From [Phormidium] sp. ETS-05 (GTDB lineage: Bacteria > Cyanobacteriota > Cyanobacteriia > Cyanobacteriales > Laspinemataceae), in the NCBI RefSeq assembly GCF_016446395.1, contig NZ_CP051168.1, positions 3,685,579 to 3,749,578 of the forward strand: a stretch of 64,000 nucleotides of DNA. The letters run 5' to 3'. The notes under the pieces were generated by a model. It saw only the letters and a program-made list of their open reading frames with translations. It searched no databases and was not told where the DNA came from. A program made the translations under genes and the position numbers. Shown here piece after piece: positions 3,799-47,941 of the stretch; the first letter of the stretch is position 1, and the number at the start of each line of letters is the position of its first letter.

Positions 3799-4344
3799 AT
3801 GCAAACCAAATCCAAAATGGTGCAGCCAGAGGAGCATGGCTTCACCCTGTTAGAGGTATTGGTCGTAGTTTTAATCGTAGGAATCTTAGCCACAGTTGCT
3901 GCTATCAGTTGGGATACTTTCGTCAGCTTTCAGGCGTTGAGAAATGCGGAAAATTTATTATACAACGCTCTTCAAGAAGCTAAATCAAACGCCGTCAGAG
4001 ATAGCATCAACTGGCAAGTAAGTTTCCGAGAAAAAGATAATGTTTCCCAATGGGCTATTCACCCCACAGAGCGTTCTCCAGTCGCCGCCGATTGGCAAGA
4101 TTTAAACACCAGAGTGCGGATTATAGACACAGACATCAACCCGAATGATTTAAATTACACCACTTTCTATTATAACAGAAACACTGGTGAATACCGAATG
4201 CAATTTAATCATCATGGCAATGCTAACGGACAGTTAGGAAAAATTACCGTAGGTTTGCGCCGTGGGGGTGGAGCGGTGCGGTGTGTGTTGGTTTCCACCC
4301 TCATCGGCGCCATGAGAACCGGCCAAGATGGTAGATGTAAGTAG
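3799..4344 (+). CDS. prepilin-type pseudopilin
   Basis: HG|FTLLEVLVVVLIVGILATVAA motif. Fourth pilin-like gene in the row. Confidence 0.7.
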   Translation: MQTKSKMVQPEEHGFTLLEVLVVVLIVGILATVAAISWDTFVSFQALRNAENLLYNALQEAKSNAVRDSINWQVSFREKDNVSQWAIHPTERSPVAADWQDLNTRVRIIDTDINPNDLNYTTFYYNRNTGEYRMQFNHHGNANGQLGKITVGLRRGGGAVRCVLVSTLIGAMRTGQDGRCK

Positions 4345-4361
4345 TAGCAAGGCGTGAGTCA

Positions 4362-4429
4362 AGAAACCGGGTTTCTAAAACGAGATATCTCTTACCTAGA
4401 GGGAGATTCTCCGCAGAAACCCGGTTTCT
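4362..4429. mobile_element. MITE-like palindromic element, family A (AGAAACCGGGTTTCT ... cgagat.tctc.tacc..gagggagattctccgc ... AGAAACCCGGTTTCT)
   Basis: Two copies of the 15-bp perfect palindrome flank a ~38-bp core. Related copies are at 7736-7800, 11559-11627, 13091-13110, 24416-24452, 37775-37800, 47683-47710, 50078-50125 and 60836-60905. Confidence 0.6.
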
Positions 4430-4469
4430 GAACTGCCACCCCTACAGACGGGGTGTGGTGAATGGGGGT

Positions 4470-6806
4470 TTAGTTGTTGCCACCCATGATGTTTTGCACG
4501 ATCGCCTTGCGGGCTTCTTCCGTCTTTTGCCGATCGAGCTTAAACACAATCACCCCCAGAGGCGGTAAACACAAATCCATAGAATAGCGATGATTGTGCA
4601 TCCACCACTCATCAGCCCATTTACCACCAAGGTTGCCCATCCCGCTACCGCCAAACTCTTTAGCATCACTATTAAACAGTTCCGTGTAGAAACCATGCTC
4701 CGGAACACCGACGCGGTAGTGGCTGTGAGGTTGGGGAGTGAAATTGCACACCGTCACGATAAATTCGTCAGAGCCTTTCGCCCGTCGAATGAATGACACC
4801 ACACTATGGCGGTTGTCACTGCAATCAATCCACTCAAACCCTGCCTGGTCAAAATCCTGGGTATAGAGAGCCGCTTCACTCTTATACAAATTATTCAACT
4901 GACTAAAAAAGTATTTAAGCTGCTGGTGAGGTTCATACTGCAAAAGCTGCCACTCCAAGTCTCCCCAGACGTTCCACTCACTCCATTGGGCAAATTCCAT
5001 GCTCATAAACATGGTTTTCTTACCAGGGTGACAGAACATATAAGTGAACAAAGCCCGGACGTTGGCGAACTTCTGCCAGCGGTCTCCCGGCATTTTGCCA
5101 ATCATATTGCTCTTACCATGAACTACCTCATCGTGAGACAAGGCGAGCATAAAGTTTTCGCTGTGGTTGTACCACATGCTGAAAGTGACATTATTTTGGT
5201 GGAACTGGCGGAACCAAGGGTCCATGCTGAAATAATCCAGCATATCGTGCATCCAGCCCATATTCCACTTCAGGTTAAAGCCCAAACCCCCCACATAGGT
5301 AGGCCAAGAGACCATTGGCCAGGAGGTGGATTCTTCCGCAATGGATAACACCCCAGGGAAATAAGAAAACAGGAGATGATTCACTTGACGCAAGAAGTCG
5401 GCGGCGTCGATATTTTCCCGACCGCCATACTGGTTAGGAACCCATTCTCCCGGTTTCCGGGCATAGTCCAGATACAGCATAGAAGCCACTGCATCCACCC
5501 GAATCCCATCAATATGGTATTTGTCAAACCAGAATAAAGCATTAGCCACTAGGAAGTTGCGCACTTCGTTGCGGCTGTAGTTGAATATCTTAGTGCCCCA
5601 TTCCGTATGTTCGCCTTTGCGGGGGTCGGCGTGTTCATAGAGGTGGGTGCCATCAAAGAAAGACAGACCGTGACCATCTTTGGGGAAGTGACCGGGAACC
5701 CAATCAACAATGACGCCGATACCGTGTTGATGGCACTGGTCCACAAAGTACATAAAGTCTTCAGGACTGCCATAGCGGGAGGTGGGAGCAAAATAGCCGG
5801 TGACTTGATAACCCCAGGAGCCATCAAACGGGTGTTCGGCGATCGGCAGCAACTCAATGTGAGTGTAGCCCAAGTCTTTCACATAGGGAATCAGACGAGC
5901 TGCCAGCTCCCGGTAGGTGAGGAAACGGGCTCCCGGCTTCAGTTCCGAGACCACCACTACCGGTTCCGGTGTGCCATCGGGAGCCAATGCTGGTTCCGCA
6001 GAGGAGGCATGGAGCCAGGAACCGAGGTGACATTCATATACCGATACCGGCTGAGTAAGAGGGTCCGTGTGGCGGCGTTTGTCGAGCCAGTCGCCATCGT
6101 TCCAACTATACCGGCTCAGGTCAGCGACGATCGAGGCAGTTTTCGGTCTTGGTTCTTGCTGGAAGCCATAGGGGTCGGATTTTTCATAGATATGGCCTTC
6201 ACTATTTTTGATTTCATACTTGTAGGCAGCACCCACAGTCAAATCAGGGATGAACAGTTCCCAAACCCCGTTCCCACCCTTGCGCATTTGGTGTTTGCGC
6301 CCATCCCACGAGTTAAAGTCACCTAGTAGAGACACATTGCGGGCATTAGGAGCCCAGACGGCGAAGTAAACCCCTTTCACCCCCTCCACTTCCATCAAGT
6401 GGGCGCCCAACTTCTCATAAATCCGGTGGTGGTTGCCTTCAGCAAATAAGTGAACGTCAAAATCCGTCAACTTCGGGTCACGGAAGGCGTAGGGGTCGTA
6501 TGTCACCCGCTCGTGTTCCCCTTCTTTGATCCGCAGTTGGTAGTTGATCAACTCCGACATTTCCGTGGTGCATTCAAAACTGCATTCAAAAAAGTGGGGG
6601 TTGTGGCTGGGTTCCATTGGGTATTCCTTCCGCTCTTCGGGAAGGATGACCGAAACAGCATTCGCATTGGGCAAGTATGCTCGGACCACCCAGGTGCTGG
6701 TTTTGCCGTTTTGGCTAATCAGGTGGGGACCGAGAACCGCAAACGGGTCTTGATGCTGGTTCCAAACGATCCGATCGATTTGCTCAGGGGAAATAGTAAT
6801 GGCCAT
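4470..6806 (-). CDS. glgB: 1,4-alpha-glucan branching enzyme
   Basis: 778 aa. The N-terminal [28 protein letters not shown] and GH13 catalytic-region motifs are characteristic of GlgB. Confidence 0.95.
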
Positions 6807-6837
6807 GAAACTAGCTACCTAAAATGCAGTTAATAAA

Positions 6838-7130
6838 TTTGTCCTTAGTCACTTGTCCTTAGTCACTTGTACGGGCGAGAAAGCGAATCGCCCCTACTCC
6901 CTTGTCACTTGTCACTTGTCCCTTGTCACTTGTCCGCTAGAAACCACGCAGGTCAGCATAGTGCGACGCGATGCTGACGCGACGTCTTACGACGTTCGCC
7001 GATGTGCGGCTGACCTCCCTGCGACAAGTTTGGGTTTTTCACCAAGATTTGGTTAAAAAACCCCTCCGACAAATGACAAATGACAAAGGACAAATGACAA
7101 ATGACAAATGACAAATGATGGATGGCAAGG
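6838..7130. repeat. STRR-type heptamer tandem repeats (GTCACTT/GTCCTTA, then GACAAAT array)
   Basis: gtccttagtcacttgtccttagtcacttg ... cccttgtcacttgtcacttgtcccttgtcacttgtcc ... gacaaatgacaaatgacaaaggacaaatgacaaatgacaaatgacaaatga. Confidence 0.85.
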
Positions 7131-7235
7131 GAACAAGAAGGCTACGCCGACCTGACGGTTCGTGAGGGACATTGGTATCAAGATACAACAAGAAATGTTA
7201 AAAATTTTAAAAAAATGTAAATCAAACCGGCAGTG

Positions 7236-7470
7236 GGAGACGGGGAGGGGCAAGGGGGCAAGGGGGCAGGGGGAAGATGGGGAAGATGGGGAAGATGGGG
7301 AAGATGGGGAAGATGGGGAAGATGGGGAAGATGGGGAAGATGGGGAAGATGGGGAAGCAACCATCCTCCCACCCCTCCCACCCCTCCCCATCCTCCCAGT
7401 CTCCCCTGCTCCTCCGCCCCCCTGCTCCCCTGCTCCTACAATCCCGGGGGGAGAGGTTCGTTACATAGGG
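7236..7470. repeat. G-rich tandem array (GGGGAAGAT x9, GGGGCAAGG) followed by the complementary C-rich array (CTCCCACCC/CTGCTCC)
   Basis: ggggaagatggggaagatgggg... then ctcccacccctcccacccctcccc...cctgctcccctgctcc. Overlapping ORFs on both strands are spurious. Confidence 0.8.
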
Positions 7471-8233
7471 AGTGAACCTCGGAGATGCGATCGAACAGCC
7501 AGGGATAATCCTGGCGGTAGGAACCCACCAGAGATAGGGGGCTGAGGAGGGCGGCGGCGGCAATATCCGCCACAGAAAGACTATTGCCCACCAAAAAAGG
7601 GTTGGAATGCCATCTCTCCCACAGCACATCCAAAGCCAAACCCAATCGCTGCTCCGCCAGAGCCACAGAAGCGGGAGTAATGCCATATTGCCGCCGCACC
7701 ACCTGAATCACCAACTGGCTGAAGGGACTGGTAGAGAAACTGGGTTTTTGGGAAACCGATCGCATCCTATCTGGCATTTTGTGAAGAAACCCGGTTTCTG
7801 AGCCCCCAGCCCGTCCGTGGTAGTACACGAATCTGGTGGCAGTCCCGATGCTCTCATCGAGCCAATCTTCCAGCATCGCGGCTTCCGTCGCCAAGGGAGG
7901 CGGAGGGATGAGGGGAGGTTCGGGGCGATAGGTTTCTAAAAACCGGAGAATTTGGCTAGAGTCGCCGATCGCCTCCGGTTGACCAGCCTCCTGGGGCAAT
8001 AAAACCGGAGTCGTAGTTAAACCCGTGAGGGGCTTAATCCGCAAAATGTGGAGACCGGGAGTGAGATTTTCCACCTCATAGAGGATTTTTTTGTAACCGA
8101 GGGCTAACCGCACTTTGCGGCAATAGTGAGAAGTGCTAAATTGCAACAGGCGCATGGGAAAAATACCAACTGCTAGGGAATATAACCTCTGGGGGAGAGC
8201 AAATCTTGCTTGCAAAACTCGCCATAGAACCAT
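7436..8233 (-). CDS. glutathione S-transferase family protein carrying an in-frame insertion of a degenerate family-A MITE
   Basis: N-terminal thioredoxin-like GST domain (SHYCRKVRLALGYKKILYEVENL...TPVLL...IGDSSQILRFLE) and a GST C-terminal domain. The segment SETGFLHKMPDRMRSVSQKPSFS is encoded by 7736-7800, which carries ggaaaccgatcgc...agaaacccggtttct. The start is ambiguous: the first in-frame Met is MVLW..., an internal Met is MRLLQF.... Confidence 0.6.
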   Translation of the reverse strand: MVLWRVLQARFALPQRLYSLAVGIFPMRLLQFSTSHYCRKVRLALGYKKILYEVENLTPGLHILRIKPLTGLTTTPVLLPQEAGQPEAIGDSSQILRFLETYRPEPPLIPPPPLATEAAMLEDWLDESIGTATRFVYYHGRAGGSETGFLHKMPDRMRSVSQKPSFSTSPFSQLVIQVVRRQYGITPASVALAEQRLGLALDVLWERWHSNPFLVGNSLSVADIAAAALLSPLSLVGSYRQDYPWLFDRISEVHSLCNEPLPPGL

Positions 8234-8369
8234 TCCGAAATTAGCAGACCCACGAAGCCAGTGCTAGTATGTTTCAATCCCTGAAAGGGGTTCGGGTAAA
8301 TTTTCTCCCTCCCCGTCACAGTACCATGACCCTTGTTATTCGTCAATTCCCTGATATAGGAGAAAGCTG

Positions 8370-9005
8370 ATGACTGCTGCGCTAAAAAACCCCGGTATGA
8401 GTAGAACCAGGAGCCTTGTACCTTTGCCGGGAGGCAGGGCGGGATTAGCCAAAAATCTCCCCAATGGGGTGCGAAAGAAGATTGTGCCCCTGCGGCCCAT
8501 TGCCCCGTCCCCCCGTCCAGAAGTCCCCCGGTCGGTGAGCGAACCGATAGGTCGGCGAAGCCCAGCCGAACCGCCGTCCCCCCGTCTTCCCCGCTCAGGG
8601 GTAGCAGCCAGAGTGGCTCGGATTGACAAAAAAGCCCCTGTGTGGTCTCAGCCCTGGTGGCTGCGAACGATCGCCAGCATCTACTCCATCAGTTCCATCA
8701 CCACAATTCTGTTAGGAGGAGCAGCCTTGACCATGTATGCCAGCACGGTTTACCACCAACAGCAGTGGAGCCAAGAATATGGTAAGCTAGAAAACCTGCG
8801 TCGGGAAGAGCGGCAGCTAAGCGCCACAAACGAAGTATTGAAAAACAGCATCGCCGAAAGCGCCGAACAACCGGGCACTGGCCTAGTCCCCCCAGAAGCA
8901 GCGCCCACCATTGTTCTGGAACCAGCACCGCCGTCTCCTGCCGCCGCCCCCAAACCAACCCCCACCAGAATGGCGCCCCTGGTTGAAGAACCACTGGGAT
9001 ATTAA
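8370..9005 (+). CDS. FtsL/DivIC-like cell-division protein (single transmembrane helix plus coiled coil) upstream of ftsI
   Basis: TM helix TIASIYSISSITTILLGGAALTMYA is followed by the coiled coil LENLRREERQLSATNEVLKN. It sits directly 5' of ftsI, as ftsL does in other bacteria. The Pro-rich N-terminus overlaps a G-rich repeat, so the start is uncertain. Confidence 0.4.
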   Translation: MTAALKNPGMSRTRSLVPLPGGRAGLAKNLPNGVRKKIVPLRPIAPSPRPEVPRSVSEPIGRRSPAEPPSPRLPRSGVAARVARIDKKAPVWSQPWWLRTIASIYSISSITTILLGGAALTMYASTVYHQQQWSQEYGKLENLRREERQLSATNEVLKNSIAESAEQPGTGLVPPEAAPTIVLEPAPPSPAAAPKPTPTRMAPLVEEPLGY

Positions 9006-11511: not shown

Positions 11512-11741
11512 TTGTCATTTGTCCTGCAGTCATTTGTCCTTTGTGTCCTTTGTCCCCCAGAAACCGGGTTTCTAATCGAGATTTTTTGTCCCTGAACGGA
11601 GATTATCCGCAGACCCGGAGTTCAGCCTCTACATCGGCTGTCGCGTCGCTGTCGGCTGAACTCCGTCCCCGGTTTCTTCTCCAACAAGGGACAAGTGACA
11701 AGGGACAAATGACCAAGGACAAATGACAAATGACCAATTAA

Positions 11742-12692: not shown

Positions 12693-12744
12693 TTGTCCCT
12701 TGTCATTTGTCCCTTGTCATTTGTCCTTAGATGATGCTTCAAAT

Positions 12745-12815
12745 TGTAGGGTGGGCATTGCCGAACACAGAGGTTCTGGGTTGAGATGGCGGAGGTTGGG
12801 CAATGCCCACCCTAC
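12745..12815. mobile_element. MITE-like hairpin element, family B (TGTAGGGTGGGCATTGCC ... GGCAATGCCCACCCTAC)
   Basis: 17-bp terminal inverted repeats around a ~37-bp spacer. Other copies are at 26519-26595, 44807-44880, 49749-49820 and 55010-55085. Confidence 0.6.
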
Positions 12816-12845
12816 GAACTGTTAAAGGACTATCGCGGCCAACCA

Positions 12846-13065
12846 CATCCCTGAGAAACCGGAGTGCCCTCACCCCCAACCCCTCGACCAAAAAGGGAGA
12901 GGGGCTTCTGGAGTGTGCGGTTTGAGGTGGAGTGTGGGATCTTTATTCCTCCCCCTCCTCCCTCTCCTCCCACCCTGACCCCTCTTCCCCCCTTTCTCCC
13001 TTTTTGGGAGAAAGGGGTTGGGGGATAGAGGGCAAGATAAAAAACCTGCACTTGTAAGGGGGGGA
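12846..13065. mobile_element. MITE-like element, family C (pyrimidine/purine-rich, ending ..GGTTGGGGGATAGAGGGCAAGATAAAAAACCTGCACTTGTAAGG)
   Basis: Shares ctcacccccaacccctc..., gagagggg... and the 45-bp 3' terminus with the element at 19918-20140. Confidence 0.5.
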
Positions 13066-13119
13066 GGAAGGGGAGAAGAAGACGATGATTTTGGGCGAGA
13101 AACCCGGTTTCTTTACTTG

Positions 13120-15246
13120 TTAATCCACAGTGTTATCGGCTTCGGCGCGGATAAATGCCCGATCGCTCACTGATATGCCCTTAGAGGAAATCCCCAAAGC
13201 ATTTAAATCAGCTTCCACCATCAATCCTACCAGTTCCTCAAAAGTCACCGATGGTTCCCAGCCCAGCTTTTGCTTTGCTTTCGTGGGGTCGCCAATCAAT
13301 AAATCTACTTCTGCGGGACGGAGATAGCGGGGGTCAAATTCCACATAGTTTTGCCAATCGAGATTGACATAGCCAAATGCCAAATCCAGAAACTCGCGAA
13401 TCTCGTGGGTTTCGCCAGTGGCGACCACATAATCATCGGGTTCGGGTTGTTGCAGCATCAGCCACATCGCCCGCACATAATCTTTGGCATAACCCCAGTC
13501 CCGCTTAGAATCCAGATTACCCAGATAGAGTTTTTTCTGTTTTCCGGCGACGATGCGGGCCACGGCGCGAGTAATCTTGCGGGTGACAAATGTCTCGCCA
13601 CGACGGGGGGAATTGTGGATCCAACCCTGACCAATACCAGCATGGAAAGTCCCGCTGGTAGTGGCTAGGTCAAATAGCCAGTTGTCGTATTCAATGGGCT
13701 GGGCTTTCACCACTTCTGCCAAGGGTCGGCGCAGATGCTGTCCTTTGTTCCCAGGCACATCGGGAGAATTCAGATTAATTTGGTAGTAAATCCGTCCTTC
13801 TCGCTCTTCTGTGCAAATAATTGCTCGTTGCTCTAGGGTTGTCAACGCCATCCAGTACAGACCGGCAGCCATGACGGGGGAGGCAGTTTTGAAGCCCTGA
13901 AACTCATATGTGCAAGGTGTACTCTTGAGTCCGTCGCCAGCGTTGAATCCCTGCAAAAATGCTAAGCGTTCTTGGTAGCAAGCATTGAGAATGCGTTTGG
14001 GGATACGCTTATGGCCCGATCGGCTGTACAGGGAGTTATAAATGTAGCGACCATATTCAGGATTTCCATTCAGGCGGAGCTGAGTTACATCGCCACCGCC
14101 TTCAAAACCCGAAGCAGCCACATATCGAGAAGAACTGCCACCAGTAATTTTGCGCCAAGAGGCAGCCACGCGCTCGAGTAAGGCAGAATCTTGGTTAGTG
14201 ACTTGGACTTTCCCTTCTTCACTGACGTAACCTTCCGCCGCAATTATCCCTAGCAACCAGGCTTCGGTTTCCGTCAAATCGATTTGGTCTGTGGGTTGGG
14301 GCAAGTCAATCAACGCGAGGGAGTCACCCACCATCACTTCCCCGGCGGGCCGCTCACAGGGTTGTTCATCTTTGGTGACAAACACCACGTGGTCGCTAGT
14401 GGCATGATACACCGCCCCCCGAGCCGCAATTCGATGTACCTGTTTATTGGGCTGGCGTTTGGCACCATTCCAAGTGGCGGTCATACAAGTAACTTCCGTC
14501 CACCCTTGGGCGTCCCAAACCTGAAATCGGTCTTCAGGAGACAAATCGGTGGTATAGCGATGACCATGTGTGGCATCTGTGCGATGGGGGACCACATCCT
14601 CGATCGGCAAAATGTCAATCAAGCCATCTTTTCTAATGATCACTGGTGTTTCCGCCGTGACACATTCGTGGTTGAACAGGATGCCGTTACAAGCAAATAA
14701 GTTGTAAGACTCCCGATAATTGACGGTTTGCCAATGAGCGTAAACCTTGGCGCAGGAGTAGGGACTGCGCGGATAAAAAGGTGTGGTTTCTTTTTGGGGA
14801 ACTTCCAGCACTTTACCGAACATTTCCGAGGAACCGGCTTGGTAGAAGCGGACCTGGGTGCCGGTGCGGTGTTCATAGTCCCGGATGGCTTCTAACAGGC
14901 GTAGGGTGCCCATCGCCACAGTATCCACGGTATATTCCGGTGAGTCGAAGCTAACCCGGACGTGAGATTGGGCGCCAAGGTTGTATATTTCTACGGGTTG
15001 GACTTCTTCCAATATCCGCCGCAAGGTGGTGCCATCGGTGAGGTCGCCGTAGTGGAGAAATAGGCGAGCGGTTTCGTTGTGGGGGTCTTCGTAGATATGA
15101 TCGATGCGGTCGGTGTTAAAGGTGGAGGTCCGGCGGATGATGCCGTGGACTTCATAGCCTTTTTCTAGTAACAGCTCGCTGAGGTAGGAGCCGTCTTGAC
15201 CTGTAATGCCGGTGATGAGCGATCGCTTCGGTTGCGTCATCCTCAA
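13120..15246 (-). CDS. gmd: GDP-mannose 4,6-dehydratase precursor interrupted by an in-frame intein (357-aa extein plus 351-aa intein)
   Basis: Extein motifs: ITGITGQDGSYLSELLL, YSCAKVYAHW and ...FACNGILFNHE|...|SPRRGETFVTRKITRA. The 708-aa ORF is about twice the normal Gmd length, and the extra block lies between E194 and S546. Confidence 0.9.
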   Translation of the reverse strand: MRMTQPKRSLITGITGQDGSYLSELLLEKGYEVHGIIRRTSTFNTDRIDHIYEDPHNETARLFLHYGDLTDGTTLRRILEEVQPVEIYNLGAQSHVRVSFDSPEYTVDTVAMGTLRLLEAIRDYEHRTGTQVRFYQAGSSEMFGKVLEVPQKETTPFYPRSPYSCAKVYAHWQTVNYRESYNLFACNGILFNHECVTAETPVIIRKDGLIDILPIEDVVPHRTDATHGHRYTTDLSPEDRFQVWDAQGWTEVTCMTATWNGAKRQPNKQVHRIAARGAVYHATSDHVVFVTKDEQPCERPAGEVMVGDSLALIDLPQPTDQIDLTETEAWLLGIIAAEGYVSEEGKVQVTNQDSALLERVAASWRKITGGSSSRYVAASGFEGGGDVTQLRLNGNPEYGRYIYNSLYSRSGHKRIPKRILNACYQERLAFLQGFNAGDGLKSTPCTYEFQGFKTASPVMAAGLYWMALTTLEQRAIICTEEREGRIYYQINLNSPDVPGNKGQHLRRPLAEVVKAQPIEYDNWLFDLATTSGTFHAGIGQGWIHNSPRRGETFVTRKITRAVARIVAGKQKKLYLGNLDSKRDWGYAKDYVRAMWLMLQQPEPDDYVVATGETHEIREFLDLAFGYVNLDWQNYVEFDPRYLRPAEVDLLIGDPTKAKQKLGWEPSVTFEELVGLMVEADLNALGISSKGISVSDRAFIRAEADNTVD
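13612..14664 (-). other. intein (351 aa) with LAGLIDADG homing-endonuclease motifs inserted in gmd
   Basis: N-terminal Cys (CVTAETPVII, block A) and a TxxH block B (TDATHGHRY). Two LAGLIDADG-like motifs (LLGIIAAEGYV and FLQGFNAGDG). The C-terminus is ...FDLATTSGTFHAGIGQGWIHN followed by Ser+1. The insertion is exactly within the conserved Gmd motif GILFNHE/SPRRGE. Confidence 0.8.
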
Positions 15247-22162: not shown

Positions 22163-22789
22163 ATGCAGCTTCACAATCTTGATATCGATGGCTCCTCTCT
22201 CCCACCGGGGGAAATAGCAGAAGACAGAGGTTTGGGCACGATCGTCAGCGCCGCCGAAGTGATTGTCATCATCAATCCCGACTCAGCCCCCATTCAGCGT
22301 ATCATCAGCCGTGCCCGGGAAGAGGGGAGACTAATGGACTTGACCAAAGGTGCGTCGGCGCGAAAAACTCCGTCGGCGAAGCTATCGGCCATCTTTCTCT
22401 GTGCCCCCAACCATACCACGACTCCCGGCAACATCATCCTCGCGGCGATGTCCCCAGAAGCCTTTAGCCATCGCTTTTCTATAACTCAAAGCAGTTTAAA
22501 ACAATCCTATTACTCGGCTAATACTGAAATTTCGATGAATATTCAACTAATAAATATCGGTTTTGGTAATATAGTTTCTGCTAACCGAGTCGTGGCGATC
22601 GTCAGTCCCGAATCTGCCCCCATCAAGCGCATCGTCAGCGAAGCCCGTTCCGCCAACCGGCTCATCGATGCCACTTATGGCCGTCGCACCCGTGCTGTTA
22701 TCGTCACCGATTCTGCTCACGTGATTCTCTCCGCCATTCAGCCAGAAACCGTCGCCCACCGGTTTATCACCCATAAAGACGGTCAATGA
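22163..22789 (+). CDS. tandem DUF370 protein: a divergent DUF370-like N-terminal half fused in-frame to a canonical RemA/YlzA-like C-terminal half
   Basis: C-terminal half from the ATG at 22535: [77 protein letters not shown]. The N-terminal half, [37 protein letters not shown]...[17 protein letters not shown], is a degenerate copy with a 25-aa insertion. The gene is immediately upstream of gmk, as remA is in Bacillus. Confidence 0.6.
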
Positions 22790-22990
22790 CAATTGATAAT
22801 TGACAATTGATAATTGATAATTGATAATTGACCAAGGACAAATGACAATCCCCCAACCCCCTTTGAAAGGGGGGGGACAATTGACAATTGACAATTATCA
22901 ATTGTCAAAGGACAAATGACCAAGGACAAATGACCAAGGACAAATGACAAATGACAAATGACCAAGGACAAATGACAAATGACAAATAAA
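22790..22990. repeat. heptamer tandem arrays (CAATTGA/GATAATT, then GGACAAATGAC) with an inverted central section
   Basis: caattgataattgacaattgataattgataattgataattgacc ... caattgacaattgacaattatcaattgtcaa ... gacaaatgaccaaggacaaatgacaaatgacaaat. Confidence 0.85.
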
Positions 22991-23539
22991 CGATTGATTG
23001 TCTTAACCGGTCCGAGTGGGGTAGGAAAAGGCACCCTCGTAGGTTCTCTCCTCCAGCGTCATCCCGAGCTTTGTCTTTCGGTCTCAGCCACCACCCGATC
23101 GCCCCGTCCCGGAGAAATTCACGGCAAAAACTACTATTTTGTTGACCAGCAACGATTTCAAAAAATGATTGCCGCTGACGAACTCTTAGAATGGGCAGAA
23201 TTTGCCACCAACTACTACGGTACACCCAAAGCACCCGTAGAAAAACTTCTCGCCGAGGGCAAGTTTGTCTTACTAGAAATCGAACTCCAAGGCGCTCGCC
23301 AAGTGAGAAAAACTTTTCCCAACGCCCTGCAAATCTTTATTTTACCCCCCAGCGGAGAAGAATTAGAGCGGCGGATTCGCGGACGTGCCCAAGATTCTGA
23401 AGAAGCTATATCCCGCCGTCTCCAACGTGCCCGGGACGAGATTGCCGCGAAGAATGAGTTTGACATCCAAATCGTCAATGACGATTTAGAAACAGCTTTG
23501 GCAGAAATTGAAAAAGCTATTTTTTCGGTGGACAAGTAA
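22979..23539 (+). CDS. gmk: guanylate kinase
   Basis: [10 protein letters not shown]-loop, SATTR, and ...YYGTPK... motifs; 186 aa. The start codon lies inside the last GACAAATGAC repeat unit. Confidence 0.9.
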
Positions 23540-23884: not shown

Positions 23885-24060
23885 AATCAACTTTTGTCCT
23901 TAGTCATTTGTCCTTTGTCACTTGTCCTTAGTCCTTAGTCATTTGTCACTTGTCACTTGTCCCTTGTCATTTGTCACCAAAGGATAATTGACAATTATTA
24001 ATTATCAATTATCAAAGGACAAAAGACAAAGGACAAAGAACCAATGACCAATGATATTTA
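23885..24060. repeat. STRR heptamer arrays in inverted arrangement
   Basis: tgtccttagtcatttgtcctttgtcacttgtcc... / ...caaaggacaaaagacaaaggacaaagaaccaatgaccaatga. Confidence 0.8.
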
Positions 24061-24063
24061 ATG

Positions 24064-24456
24064 TTAAAAATTATCTAAAAATTCATCATAAATGGCGGTA
24101 ATTTTTTGCCGCACTTCCGGGACGTAATGGGCAATTACAAAGGCAGGGGAGGTGTTGTCCGGGGGATCGTCTATCTCCAGGCGATCGCCCTCCTCTCTCA
24201 GCCTATCCCCCAGGTTATGTTTGGCGCACCATTTGCCTATAGTATGAGCGATAAAAAATAAATCTTCATCAGGAAATTCTGCCAAACTTTTGCCCAAATC
24301 CGGCAACTGCTGCCAACTTTTAGGCATAAATACTTGGGGGGTATTTTCCAGCCACCGCCAAAACACAATAATAATTACCGCAGGTTCCATAAATCCAAAC
24401 AGGGGGAACACAGCCAAGAAACCGGGTTTCAGGGAGAAACCCGGTTTCTGAGACAC
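24064..24456 (-). CDS. hypothetical protein; the N-terminus as called is encoded by a family-A MITE pair, so the true start is probably internal (MEPAVIIIVFWRW...)
   Basis: An ORF with a GTG start. KPGFSLKPGF is a translation of the agaaacccggtttc palindromes. Confidence 0.35.
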   Translation of the reverse strand: MSQKPGFSLKPGFLAVFPLFGFMEPAVIIIVFWRWLENTPQVFMPKSWQQLPDLGKSLAEFPDEDLFFIAHTIGKWCAKHNLGDRLREEGDRLEIDDPPDNTSPAFVIAHYVPEVRQKITAIYDEFLDNF

Positions 24457-24587
24457 TAGCCGCCGAAGCTGAAAACCAGCATATCGGGGATAAAGCGGTT
24501 AAATTCAATCAAAATGCCAGCGGTAATCACCATCCAAATCGTGGCCAGCACGGGGGCGGTGGAAAGGTATTTCAGGAAATCTTGCAT
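24456..24587 (-). CDS. psaJ: photosystem I reaction centre subunit IX (PsaJ), 43 aa, not in the ORF track
   Basis: Minus-strand translation [43 protein letters not shown] matches the PsaJ signature (...[11 protein letters not shown]...[13 protein letters not shown]...). It lies immediately downstream of psaF, as in other cyanobacteria. Confidence 0.85.
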
Positions 24588-24604
24588 CGCGGGATTCTCC
24601 AAAT

Positions 24605-37706: not shown

Positions 37707-38083
37707 AGCTGATGTCCTTTGTCCAGAGGTCATTTGTCCGGCGAGTCCTTTGTCATTTTTCCAAAATCTTTGGCTCAGCAGAAACCGGGTTTCTTAACCA
37801 GGTATGGGCTATGATGCAGAAGCGAATGCTATGCTTCGCAGACCGATCGGTTAGGAGCCAGGTCCAGGTTTTTCCTCCAAAGGACAAGGGACTAGGGACA
37901 AATGACCATGATAAATTTTTCGCGCTTATGTATTGGCCAGCCCGATCCCTCTACCAGAGGCGAGGGGACTGTTGGCCAACTCCGGCACCAAGCCGGATGA
38001 GTCGATATACTAAAAATCTTATCCCCCAATTGGCAGGCAAAAGGGATTTTTAAGAATATTATTAGATAGACTGGCGAGCCATC

Positions 38084-46374: not shown

Positions 46375-46520
46375 ATTTTCCTTATTGGTCATTGGTCATT
46401 GGTCATTGGTTCAAGAGTCCTTTGTCCAAGAGTCCTTTGTCCTTTGTTCTTGGGTAGGGGCAATTCGCGAATCCCCCCTACAAAGGACTAGGGACTAGGG
46501 ACAAGTGACAAATGACAAGT
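46375..46520. repeat. STRR arrays (TTGGTCA x4, AGTCCTTTGTCC, GGACTAGG) flanking the palindrome TAGGGGCAATTCGCGAATCCCCCCTACA
   Basis: ttggtcattggtcattggtcattgg ... taggggcaattcgcgaatcccccctaca ... ggactagggactagggacaagtgacaaatgacaag. Confidence 0.85.
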
Positions 46521-47368: not shown

Positions 47369-47941
47369 AACTATTGCTCTCCTTATGGACTCTTGACCTC
47401 TTCTTAGCCTTGGTGGCGACCCTTGGGCGCCCTCGGTTGTCCGAGTCCCTTGGCGGCTGACCGGGACCAGAAGAAGTAAGGCGTGAAAATTTGGGCAATT
47501 AATACCCCATCATCAATTGATTCTATGCAAGAATATCCACAAAGTCACTAGGGTAATAAGTCAACCCGACAAAAAAGTAGCCCAACCAACCAAAACAGAT
47601 GGGAATCAGCACTAGAGCCATTCGGGTGGGGTTGAGCTGACCCTCAACCCCACCTAGGAGGCGCATAGGGTGGCTCGCGGTTTTAGAAACCCGGTTTCTT
47701 TACTTGCGCTTGCTGAGCTAGGGGGAGGGCATGTGGCTATTTCTAGGGTGCCGAGATTCGCTCCACACACATGATGACTGCGGCCTAATTAGGCCGAAAA
47801 TCTATCCCGGTAAAGCTGGCATTTCCTAATTCATATGAGGGTGGTCAGGCGAAAGCTCGGCGATCGCCGATGTAGAGGCTGACTTCCGGGTGGGAAAGGC
47901 TGGTTTCACCGTTAACCGAATCTTAAGGCAATTTCATAGTT

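Follow-up and report, generated by a model that had tools for sequence, protein, structure and literature searches.

A palindromic repeat doublet, probably an old and tolerated insertion, read in frame within a glutathione S-transferase gene of [Phormidium] sp. ETS-05

The locus described here lies in a 64-kb stretch of the genome of [Phormidium] sp. ETS-05 (the window), a thermal-mud cyanobacterium placed in Koinonema, Oscillatoriaceae, in the NCBI taxonomy. The minus-strand open reading frame (ORF) 7436-8233 contains a glutathione S-transferase (GST) gene, and its translation runs uninterrupted through a palindromic element (...GGSETGFLHKMPDRMRSVSQKPSFSTSP...). The true start of the gene is the Met at 8155, at which more than 100 homologs begin. 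The product is 100% identical to WP_199245471.1 (P0123) of the same strain, annotated at NCBI as an intact 'glutathione S-transferase family protein'. Two Pfam models recognize the N-terminal thioredoxin-like GST domain above their cut-offs (GST_N_3, PF13417, 8.5e-14; PF13409, 2.8e-10). The C-terminal helical domain is weakly matched: PF00043 (GST_C) scores 21.0 versus a cut-off of 20.7, and PF13410 (GST_C_2) scores 22.9 bits, just under the curated cut-off of 24.9. Pfam, AlphaFold and Foldseek together identify the all-helical C-terminal GST domain and the overall GST fold. The AlphaFold model, computed from an alignment of 121 sequences, has a mean pLDDT of 89.5, and Foldseek gives a probability of 1.0 against bacterial GST structures, including 4o7h, 4jed and 4glt. 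Both the GST assignment and the in-frame position of the element in the initial annotation are upheld by these results. The features of the gene, with arms named in the coding direction, are the following.

7436..8155, minus strand: GST family gene, 239 aa (from translation, Pfam, homolog starts and AlphaFold/Foldseek)
7730..7805, minus strand: 76-nt segment without counterpart in the empty allele, encoding GSETGFLHKMPDRMRSVSQKPSFST in place of xGKSIDP
7785..7799, minus strand: 5' arm, AGAAACCGGGTTTCT, an intact 15-nt palindrome read as (S)ETGF(L)
7750..7784, minus strand: core, 35 nt, containing CGATCG
7735..7749, minus strand: 3' arm, AAAAACCCAGTTTCT, with 2 changes relative to AGAAACCCGGTTTCT, read as (Q)KPSF(S)

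The element occupies positions 7735-7799 and consists of two inverted 15-nt palindromes (AGAAACCSGGTTTCT) around a 35-nt core, 65 nt in total; it had been placed at 7736-7800, so that its presence was called correctly and its position missed by one base. The ORF reads arms and core as ...RAGGSETGFLHKMPDRMRSVSQKPSFSTSP..., and the predicted insert peptide includes the stretches SETGFLHKMPDR and SVSQKPSFS. Four of the six frames of the element are free of stop codons. The arms match the family 15-mer at 15/15 and 13/15 positions and are 92% complementary to each other over 13 nt. The limits of the 76-nt segment were set by DNA alignment with the metagenomic allele L003, by BLAST against the syntenic locus L004 and by the codon split; at both of these loci the site is empty. 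The carrier has 76 nt in place of the 22 nt of the empty allele, a net +54 nt (18 codons), which puts 25 residues where a conserved 7-residue loop, xGKxIDP, stood. The gain is therefore 18 residues, not the roughly 22 proposed at first. The element is flanked by ...GGCTC and CTACC..., and relative to L003 and L004 the 22 nt were replaced with no duplication seen; the event is old and later changes at the site are possible. Since a 65-nt element alone cannot yield +54 nt, a deletion of at least 11 nt would have taken place during or after the insertion.

The core has no relatives that we could recognize: other copies were searched for in the window (with 3 mismatches allowed), in the 83 loci compared and in JGI metagenomes, and none was found. 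JGI metagenomes do contain 16 matches to ATGCCRGWTRGRATGCGATCG, which we regard as chance matches; none has flanking palindromes and 12 of the 16 contigs have 60-71% G+C. A search of PLSDB plasmids with the 65-nt ancestral unit gave just a chance 23-nt match in Clostridioides. Small size and terminal inverted repeats (65 nt, 15-nt arms) agree with the original designation of the element as a MITE, and the designation is loose in other respects, as the many copies sharing internal sequence that characterize MITEs, a target-site duplication, a sibling with the same core and a parent transposon were not found for the GST element.

In the AlphaFold model, the N-terminal domain extends to about residue 76 and is followed by the linker (residues 77-87); the C-terminal domain comprises helix 88-115, helix 144-157 and later helices. 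The insert (residues ~117-143) is modeled with a pLDDT of 45-50 between helix 88-115 and helix 144-157 and contains a short helical turn at residues 122-126 and no other helix. According to this model, it expands the α4-α5 connection within the C-terminal domain, and its assignment to the linker between the N- and C-terminal domains is incorrect. The segment is modeled as a low-confidence loop, which would be exposed at the surface and at some distance from the active site. Three codons ahead of the insert, at a conserved aromatic position, the ETS-05 allele alone carries three adjacent changes in codon 114 (7812-7814), TTC to GGA, which replace Phe with Gly (F114G). All other carriers and the empty alleles have TTC or TTT at this codon. 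The change could be genuine or stem from faulty polishing of the Nanopore/Illumina assembly.

The α4-α5 loop is short and of fixed length in 118 of the 121 aligned cyanobacterial sequences, with the consensus RAG-x-G-K-x-I-D-P-S among non-carriers. A longer loop, with 18-19 extra residues, is found in only three of the aligned sequences, the window protein, P0001 and P0002. The nearest genome to the window in the species-representative set is that of Oscillatoriaceae cyanobacterium M33_DOE_052 (L004), which is syntenic with the window at ~90% nucleotide identity. Its empty site and that of L003, set against the presence of the element in four alleles, agree with the initial annotation, by which orthologs should lack the segment. 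The four carrier alleles available as DNA are that of the window and the following three.

L084: MAG GCA_054682715.1, ~95% identical to the window and syntenic with it
L001: SRR25083401
L002: SRR14493010

The junctions are identical in all four carriers (GG(C/A)TC, element, CTACC), suggesting a single origin of the insertion. The arms of L084 are nearly intact (15/15 and 14/15), indicating that the ancestral insert was a canonical 15+35+15 doublet. The 3' arm, which carries two changes in the window, has one in L084 and none in L001. An in-frame 3-nt indel within the insert of L002 is the sole indel among carriers, and all four alleles keep the full-length frame. Insertions of a different kind are present in GST orthologs of Coleofasciculus, Cylindrospermum and a Nostocaceae MAG (L021:10001-10708, L045:10001-10693 and L041:1726-2415). 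They comprise 8-15 residues and are unrelated and lineage-specific. All of them fall in the N-terminal domain, within its PQxxGQPxAIADS region, and leave the α4-α5 loop unaffected.

Selection on the gene was estimated by the Nei-Gojobori method from 214 codons outside the loop. Between carriers, the gene-body dN/dS is 0.07-0.26 at a dS of 0.05-0.32, and between carriers and the empty alleles it is 0.10-0.21; each pair contributes 5-20 nonsynonymous and 8-41 synonymous differences to these values. L002 has diverged from the other carriers (dS 0.28-0.32) about as far as carriers have from the empty lineage (0.28-0.37), which indicates that the insertion is old. Since the differences among carriers all post-date the insertion, selection has been active on the gene since then. 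An old, tolerated insertion in a gene under purifying selection is thus well supported. The initial annotation had left the choice between a tolerated insertion and a recent inactivation; orthologs without the segment, four alleles in frame and the gene-body dN/dS speak for toleration, and a recent event is at odds with carriers that differ from each other as much as from their empty sister lineage. Constraint on the insert is far weaker than on the gene body: pN is 0.05-0.10 in the insert versus a gene-body dN of 0.010-0.013, the pN/pS of the insert is ~0.2-0.9, below 1 in most pairs and calculated from very few sites, and the window and L001 agree at 88% of nucleotides in the insert versus 97.7% in the N-terminal flank.

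The palindromic arms belong to a repeat family. At up to 2 mismatches, AGAAACCCGGTTTCT has 22 strand matches in the 64-kb window, which correspond to 12 sites at 10 loci, versus 0.16 expected from shuffled sequence. Nine of the 10 loci are extragenic; the GST copy alone is clearly intragenic. The remaining copies are intergenic, often directly beyond stop codons, and are embedded in heptamer arrays. The copies considered here, together with the gene next to one of them, are the following.

4362..4429: A1-type doublet, 15+38+15 nt, intergenic, between ORF 3799-4344 and glgB (4470-6806), whose 3' ends converge on it
11559..11573: A1-type doublet, intergenic, second arm split by a nested 54-nt hairpin; the ortholog is intact at L084:6530-6596
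13098..13112: one arm of a doublet whose arms are separated by ~320 nt of other repeats; the intact form is at L084:5432-5500
24417..24449: palindrome pair with a 3-nt spacer, non-coding, between the stop of a psaJ-like ORF (24456) and the ATG at 24390
24064..24390, minus strand: second gene, 108 aa from MEP...; P0121 and P0122 begin at the same Met
37780..37794: singlet palindrome
47685..47699: singlet palindrome, intergenic
50077..50091: singlet palindrome, intergenic; ~33 nt downstream there may be a decayed partner

Across 1.47 Mb, comprising the window and the cyanobacterial loci, the family counts 13 doublets and 26 singlets. Nine of the 13 doublets have the polarity CCGGG...CCCGG (G...C) and ten have a start-to-start spacing of 49-55 nt; the GST doublet is of the G...C type with a spacing of 50 nt. 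Spacers are less conserved than arms and are mostly unrelated between copies; the A1 core has three copies in the window, one in L004 and one in L084. The matches are concentrated in Oscillatoriales-type loci (L004, L005, L006, L008, L025, L059 and L084), and Nostocales loci yield isolated near-matches only. Copies have turned over among close relatives, with different complements in the window, L084 and L004 and with the A1 doublet of L004 at another site. The doublet pattern has no match in viral contigs, and Pfam identifies no transposase among 10 small ORFs of the window. Rfam reports only a tRNA in the whole window, with no record of the palindrome family. We found no description of the 13-mer palindrome core in the searchable literature, and the genome paper of ETS-05 (PMC7650686) makes no mention of these palindromic repeats. 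These results point to an abundant palindromic doublet family of the Oscillatoriales, of which no description was found in the searchable literature or Rfam.

Several copies are interwoven with other repeats. A 54-nt hairpin (ACGGAGTTCAGCC...GGCTGAACTCCG) is nested in an arm of the A1 doublet at ~11600-11665 of the window. It is missing from the orthologous doublet of the 95%-identical MAG (L084:6530-6596) and seems to have replaced 2 nt without target duplication. At 12730-13112 of the window, G/C-rich and other repeats (~320 nt) split a doublet, and the arrangement of L004 is different there. One singlet of L084 is missing from the window, in a region too diverged to define insertion boundaries. 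Most palindrome copies are bordered by heptamer arrays (TGACAAA, GGACAAA, TGATAAT and variants), which also occupy many spacers; examples are the arrays at 6844-7139, 22765-23003 and 23885-24057.

The palindrome pair at 24417..24449 had been thought to encode the N-terminus of a second gene, at 24064-24456. This reading is an artifact of extending the ORF to an upstream GTG, from which the pair is translated as MSQKPGFSLKPGF... Only two homologs of the second gene were found, P0121 and P0122 (89% and 58% identical), for which no Pfam domain is recorded. Both start at Met23 of the extended ORF, so that the palindrome pair is positioned 5' of the true ATG and is not coding. The pair follows immediately on the stop of the upstream ORF 24456-24602, in the 65 nt that separate this stop from the ATG at 24390. 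By its sequence, this upstream ORF looks like psaJ, and Pfam identifies psaF next to it.

Short palindromic repeats in frame within genes are known from other bacteria. The palindromic RPEs of Rickettsia (Ogata et al. 2000, summarised in PMC10969869) lie in frame within protein-coding genes and are tolerated, and the same review reports in-frame insertions of ERIC and further MITEs, some of them in ORFs of Anabaena (PMC10969869). The GST element resembles RPEs in being a short palindromic repeat in frame in a housekeeping gene, with an extra peptide that appears compatible with the fold and a host gene that appears functional. It differs from them in length (65 nt versus ~100-150 bp), in sequence family, which is unrelated, and in host, RPEs being from Rickettsia. 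Moreover, a large share of RPE copies is intragenic, compared to one of the 10 loci in the window. The relationship with RPEs is thus one of analogous outcome and not of membership, the host phylum and the element length setting the two apart. In-frame tolerated palindrome insertion was already known, and the present case appears to work likewise, without belonging to the families described before. It leaves the understanding of such palindromic elements unchanged. Its value is that of a natural experiment, in which a conserved fixed-length loop of a housekeeping-type enzyme is replaced by repeat-derived sequence and the gene has stayed under selection over ~0.3 synonymous substitutions per site. 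It also adds a cyanobacterial example to those of Rickettsia and offers a marker of the ETS-05/Koinonema clade.

With respect to architecture, the palindrome family appears to fit REP doublets (REPINs) better than classical MITEs, since the latter have a conserved interior and a target-site duplication. REPINs have been described as 71-bp doublets in P. fluorescens SBW25 and are also present in Nostoc punctiforme (Bertels and Rainey 2011, PMC3116915). Like REPs and REPINs, the family is based on a short imperfect palindrome that is very abundant, over-represented and mainly extragenic; its doublets are inverted and have a favored spacing, the sequence between the arms is less conserved than the arms themselves, and its singlets resemble decayed doublets. 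The differences concern both arms and spacers. The 15-mer has no GTAG or CGTC head, its arms are shorter and AT-richer than those of classical REPs, and its spacers are completely different between most copies. Neither tetranucleotide is found in AGAAACCSGGTTTCT or its immediate flanks; according to PMC3733652, GTAG and CGTC end tetranucleotides define two REP super-families, and most REPs have such a head. A separate palindrome, GTAGGGGCGATTCGCGAATCGCCCCTAC, does have a GTAG head, which is typical of classical RAYT-associated REPs, and is found at 46454-46484 and 63391-63421, with a partial copy near 6879-6905. With MITEs such as ERIC, Correia and those of Anabaena (PMC10969869), the element shares small size, a non-coding nature, multiple copies, terminal inverted repeats and intragenic copies that make in-frame fusions; it differs in that no target-site duplication, shared internal sequence or parent IS was found for the GST element. 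A further similarity is that to very small hairpin repeats that nest in each other and in heptamer arrays, as seen at window ~11600-11665. Such are the small dispersed repeats (SDRs) of Nostoc, reportedly described by Elhai and colleagues in Genome Res in 2008 as 21-27 nt single units from Nostocales, by which they differ from the doublets in this comparison of descriptions.

The data are very probably explained by a single old insertion of a 65-nt palindromic doublet into the GST gene, tolerated in frame. The doublet, AGAAACCGGGTTTCT followed by a 35-nt core and AGAAACCCGGTTTCT, would have come from the highly repeated, mostly intergenic repeat family of Oscillatoriales and would have been inserted once, in an ancestor of the [Phormidium] sp. 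ETS-05/Koinonema clade after its split from the M33_DOE_052 lineage. By analogy with REPINs, the vehicle may have been a hairpin element moved by a transposase; as no second copy of the GST core was found in the window, the 83 loci or the JGI metagenomes, the mobility of the unit is deduced from its arms. Together with small accompanying or later deletions, the insertion would have turned 22 nt into 76 nt with the frame kept, and the length-invariant xGKxIDP loop into a loop of 25 residues. Toleration is attributed to a net change that is a multiple of three, to the lack of stop codons in four of the six frames and to the α4-α5 position, where the model shows the insert as a low-confidence and probably flexible loop around which the fold is preserved. 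From then on, the element would have been immobile and would have evolved as weakly constrained coding sequence, with the rest of the GST under purifying selection. The opposite outcome, a GST inactivated by the insertion and now a young pseudogene that still appears open, is improbable. The insert took the place of the loop residues K, I, P and S, all of which are conserved in 90% or more of the 121 aligned sequences, F114G lies beside it in the ETS-05 allele, and the Pfam C-terminal domain score of 22.9 bits falls just below the curated cut-off. This is countered by a full-length frame in four alleles that differ by a dS of up to 0.32, by the low gene-body dN/dS and by the 3-nt change being the sole indel seen in a divergence that accrued after the insertion. 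We infer that the GST has retained its enzymatic activity; judging from the lost K/I/P/S residues and F114G, some loss of function is possible.

Somewhat less improbable than inactivation, yet still unlikely, is that the insert was exapted and that the GST owes to its 25-residue loop a new property for which the loop is kept, be it the binding of a partner, a change in dimerisation or a different access of substrates. The insert is retained throughout the carrier clade, its pN/pS is below 1 in most pairs, and the segments S-E-T-G-x-L-x-x-M-P and M-R-S are common to all four alleles. However, residues common to the four inserts are expected from common descent alone at such divergence, the nonsynonymous rate of the insert is 4-10 times that of the gene body, the indel and the replacement of five consecutive residues in L002 were tolerated, and the insert is modeled with a pLDDT of 45-50. 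Doubtful to the same degree is a bolder scenario that includes exaptation, in which AGAAACCSGGTTTCT doublets would constitute an undescribed REPIN-like family of Oscillatoriales with its own transposase that does not recognize GTAG, would have repeatedly seeded coding loops and, in the GST, would have provided a loop that changed the range of partners or substrates. We give very little weight to the notion that the insert is a lineage-specific loop expansion with palindromes that arose by chance or were built in situ. It would account for a net length change different from the element length, for the missing sibling with a GST-type core and for the missing target-site duplication, but the two 15-mers match a genome-wide repeat at 28-29 of 30 positions in the polarity and spacing of the family, a single such 15-mer is expected by chance only 0.16 times in 64 kb, and the loop length is fixed in all 118 non-carriers. 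Equally remote is maintenance of the hairpin for a role in RNA or DNA, as an attenuator, RNase site or protein-binding site. The ancestral arms could pair as a 15-bp stem, and other family copies are found just past the stop codons of glgB, psaJ and ORF 13120-15246. The arms are decaying, however: over the 15 arm pairs in four alleles there are no compensatory changes and 8 of 60 cells are broken. In addition, the fold energy of the window copy is no better than that of shuffles (z = -0.61), and no palindrome copy within window 4200-8400 scores as an intrinsic terminator.

Other repeats are found in the window as well. The 208-aa ORF 22163-22789 contains a RemA-like domain at residues 129-201 only, and its long N-terminal extension may be an ORF-calling artifact over repeats. 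A 30-nt tandem array of ~8 copies is present at 62793-63032. Closer to the GST gene, a 9-nt tandem array (GGGGAAGAT, ~10 copies) extends over 7243-7366 and begins 70 nt past the GST stop codon.
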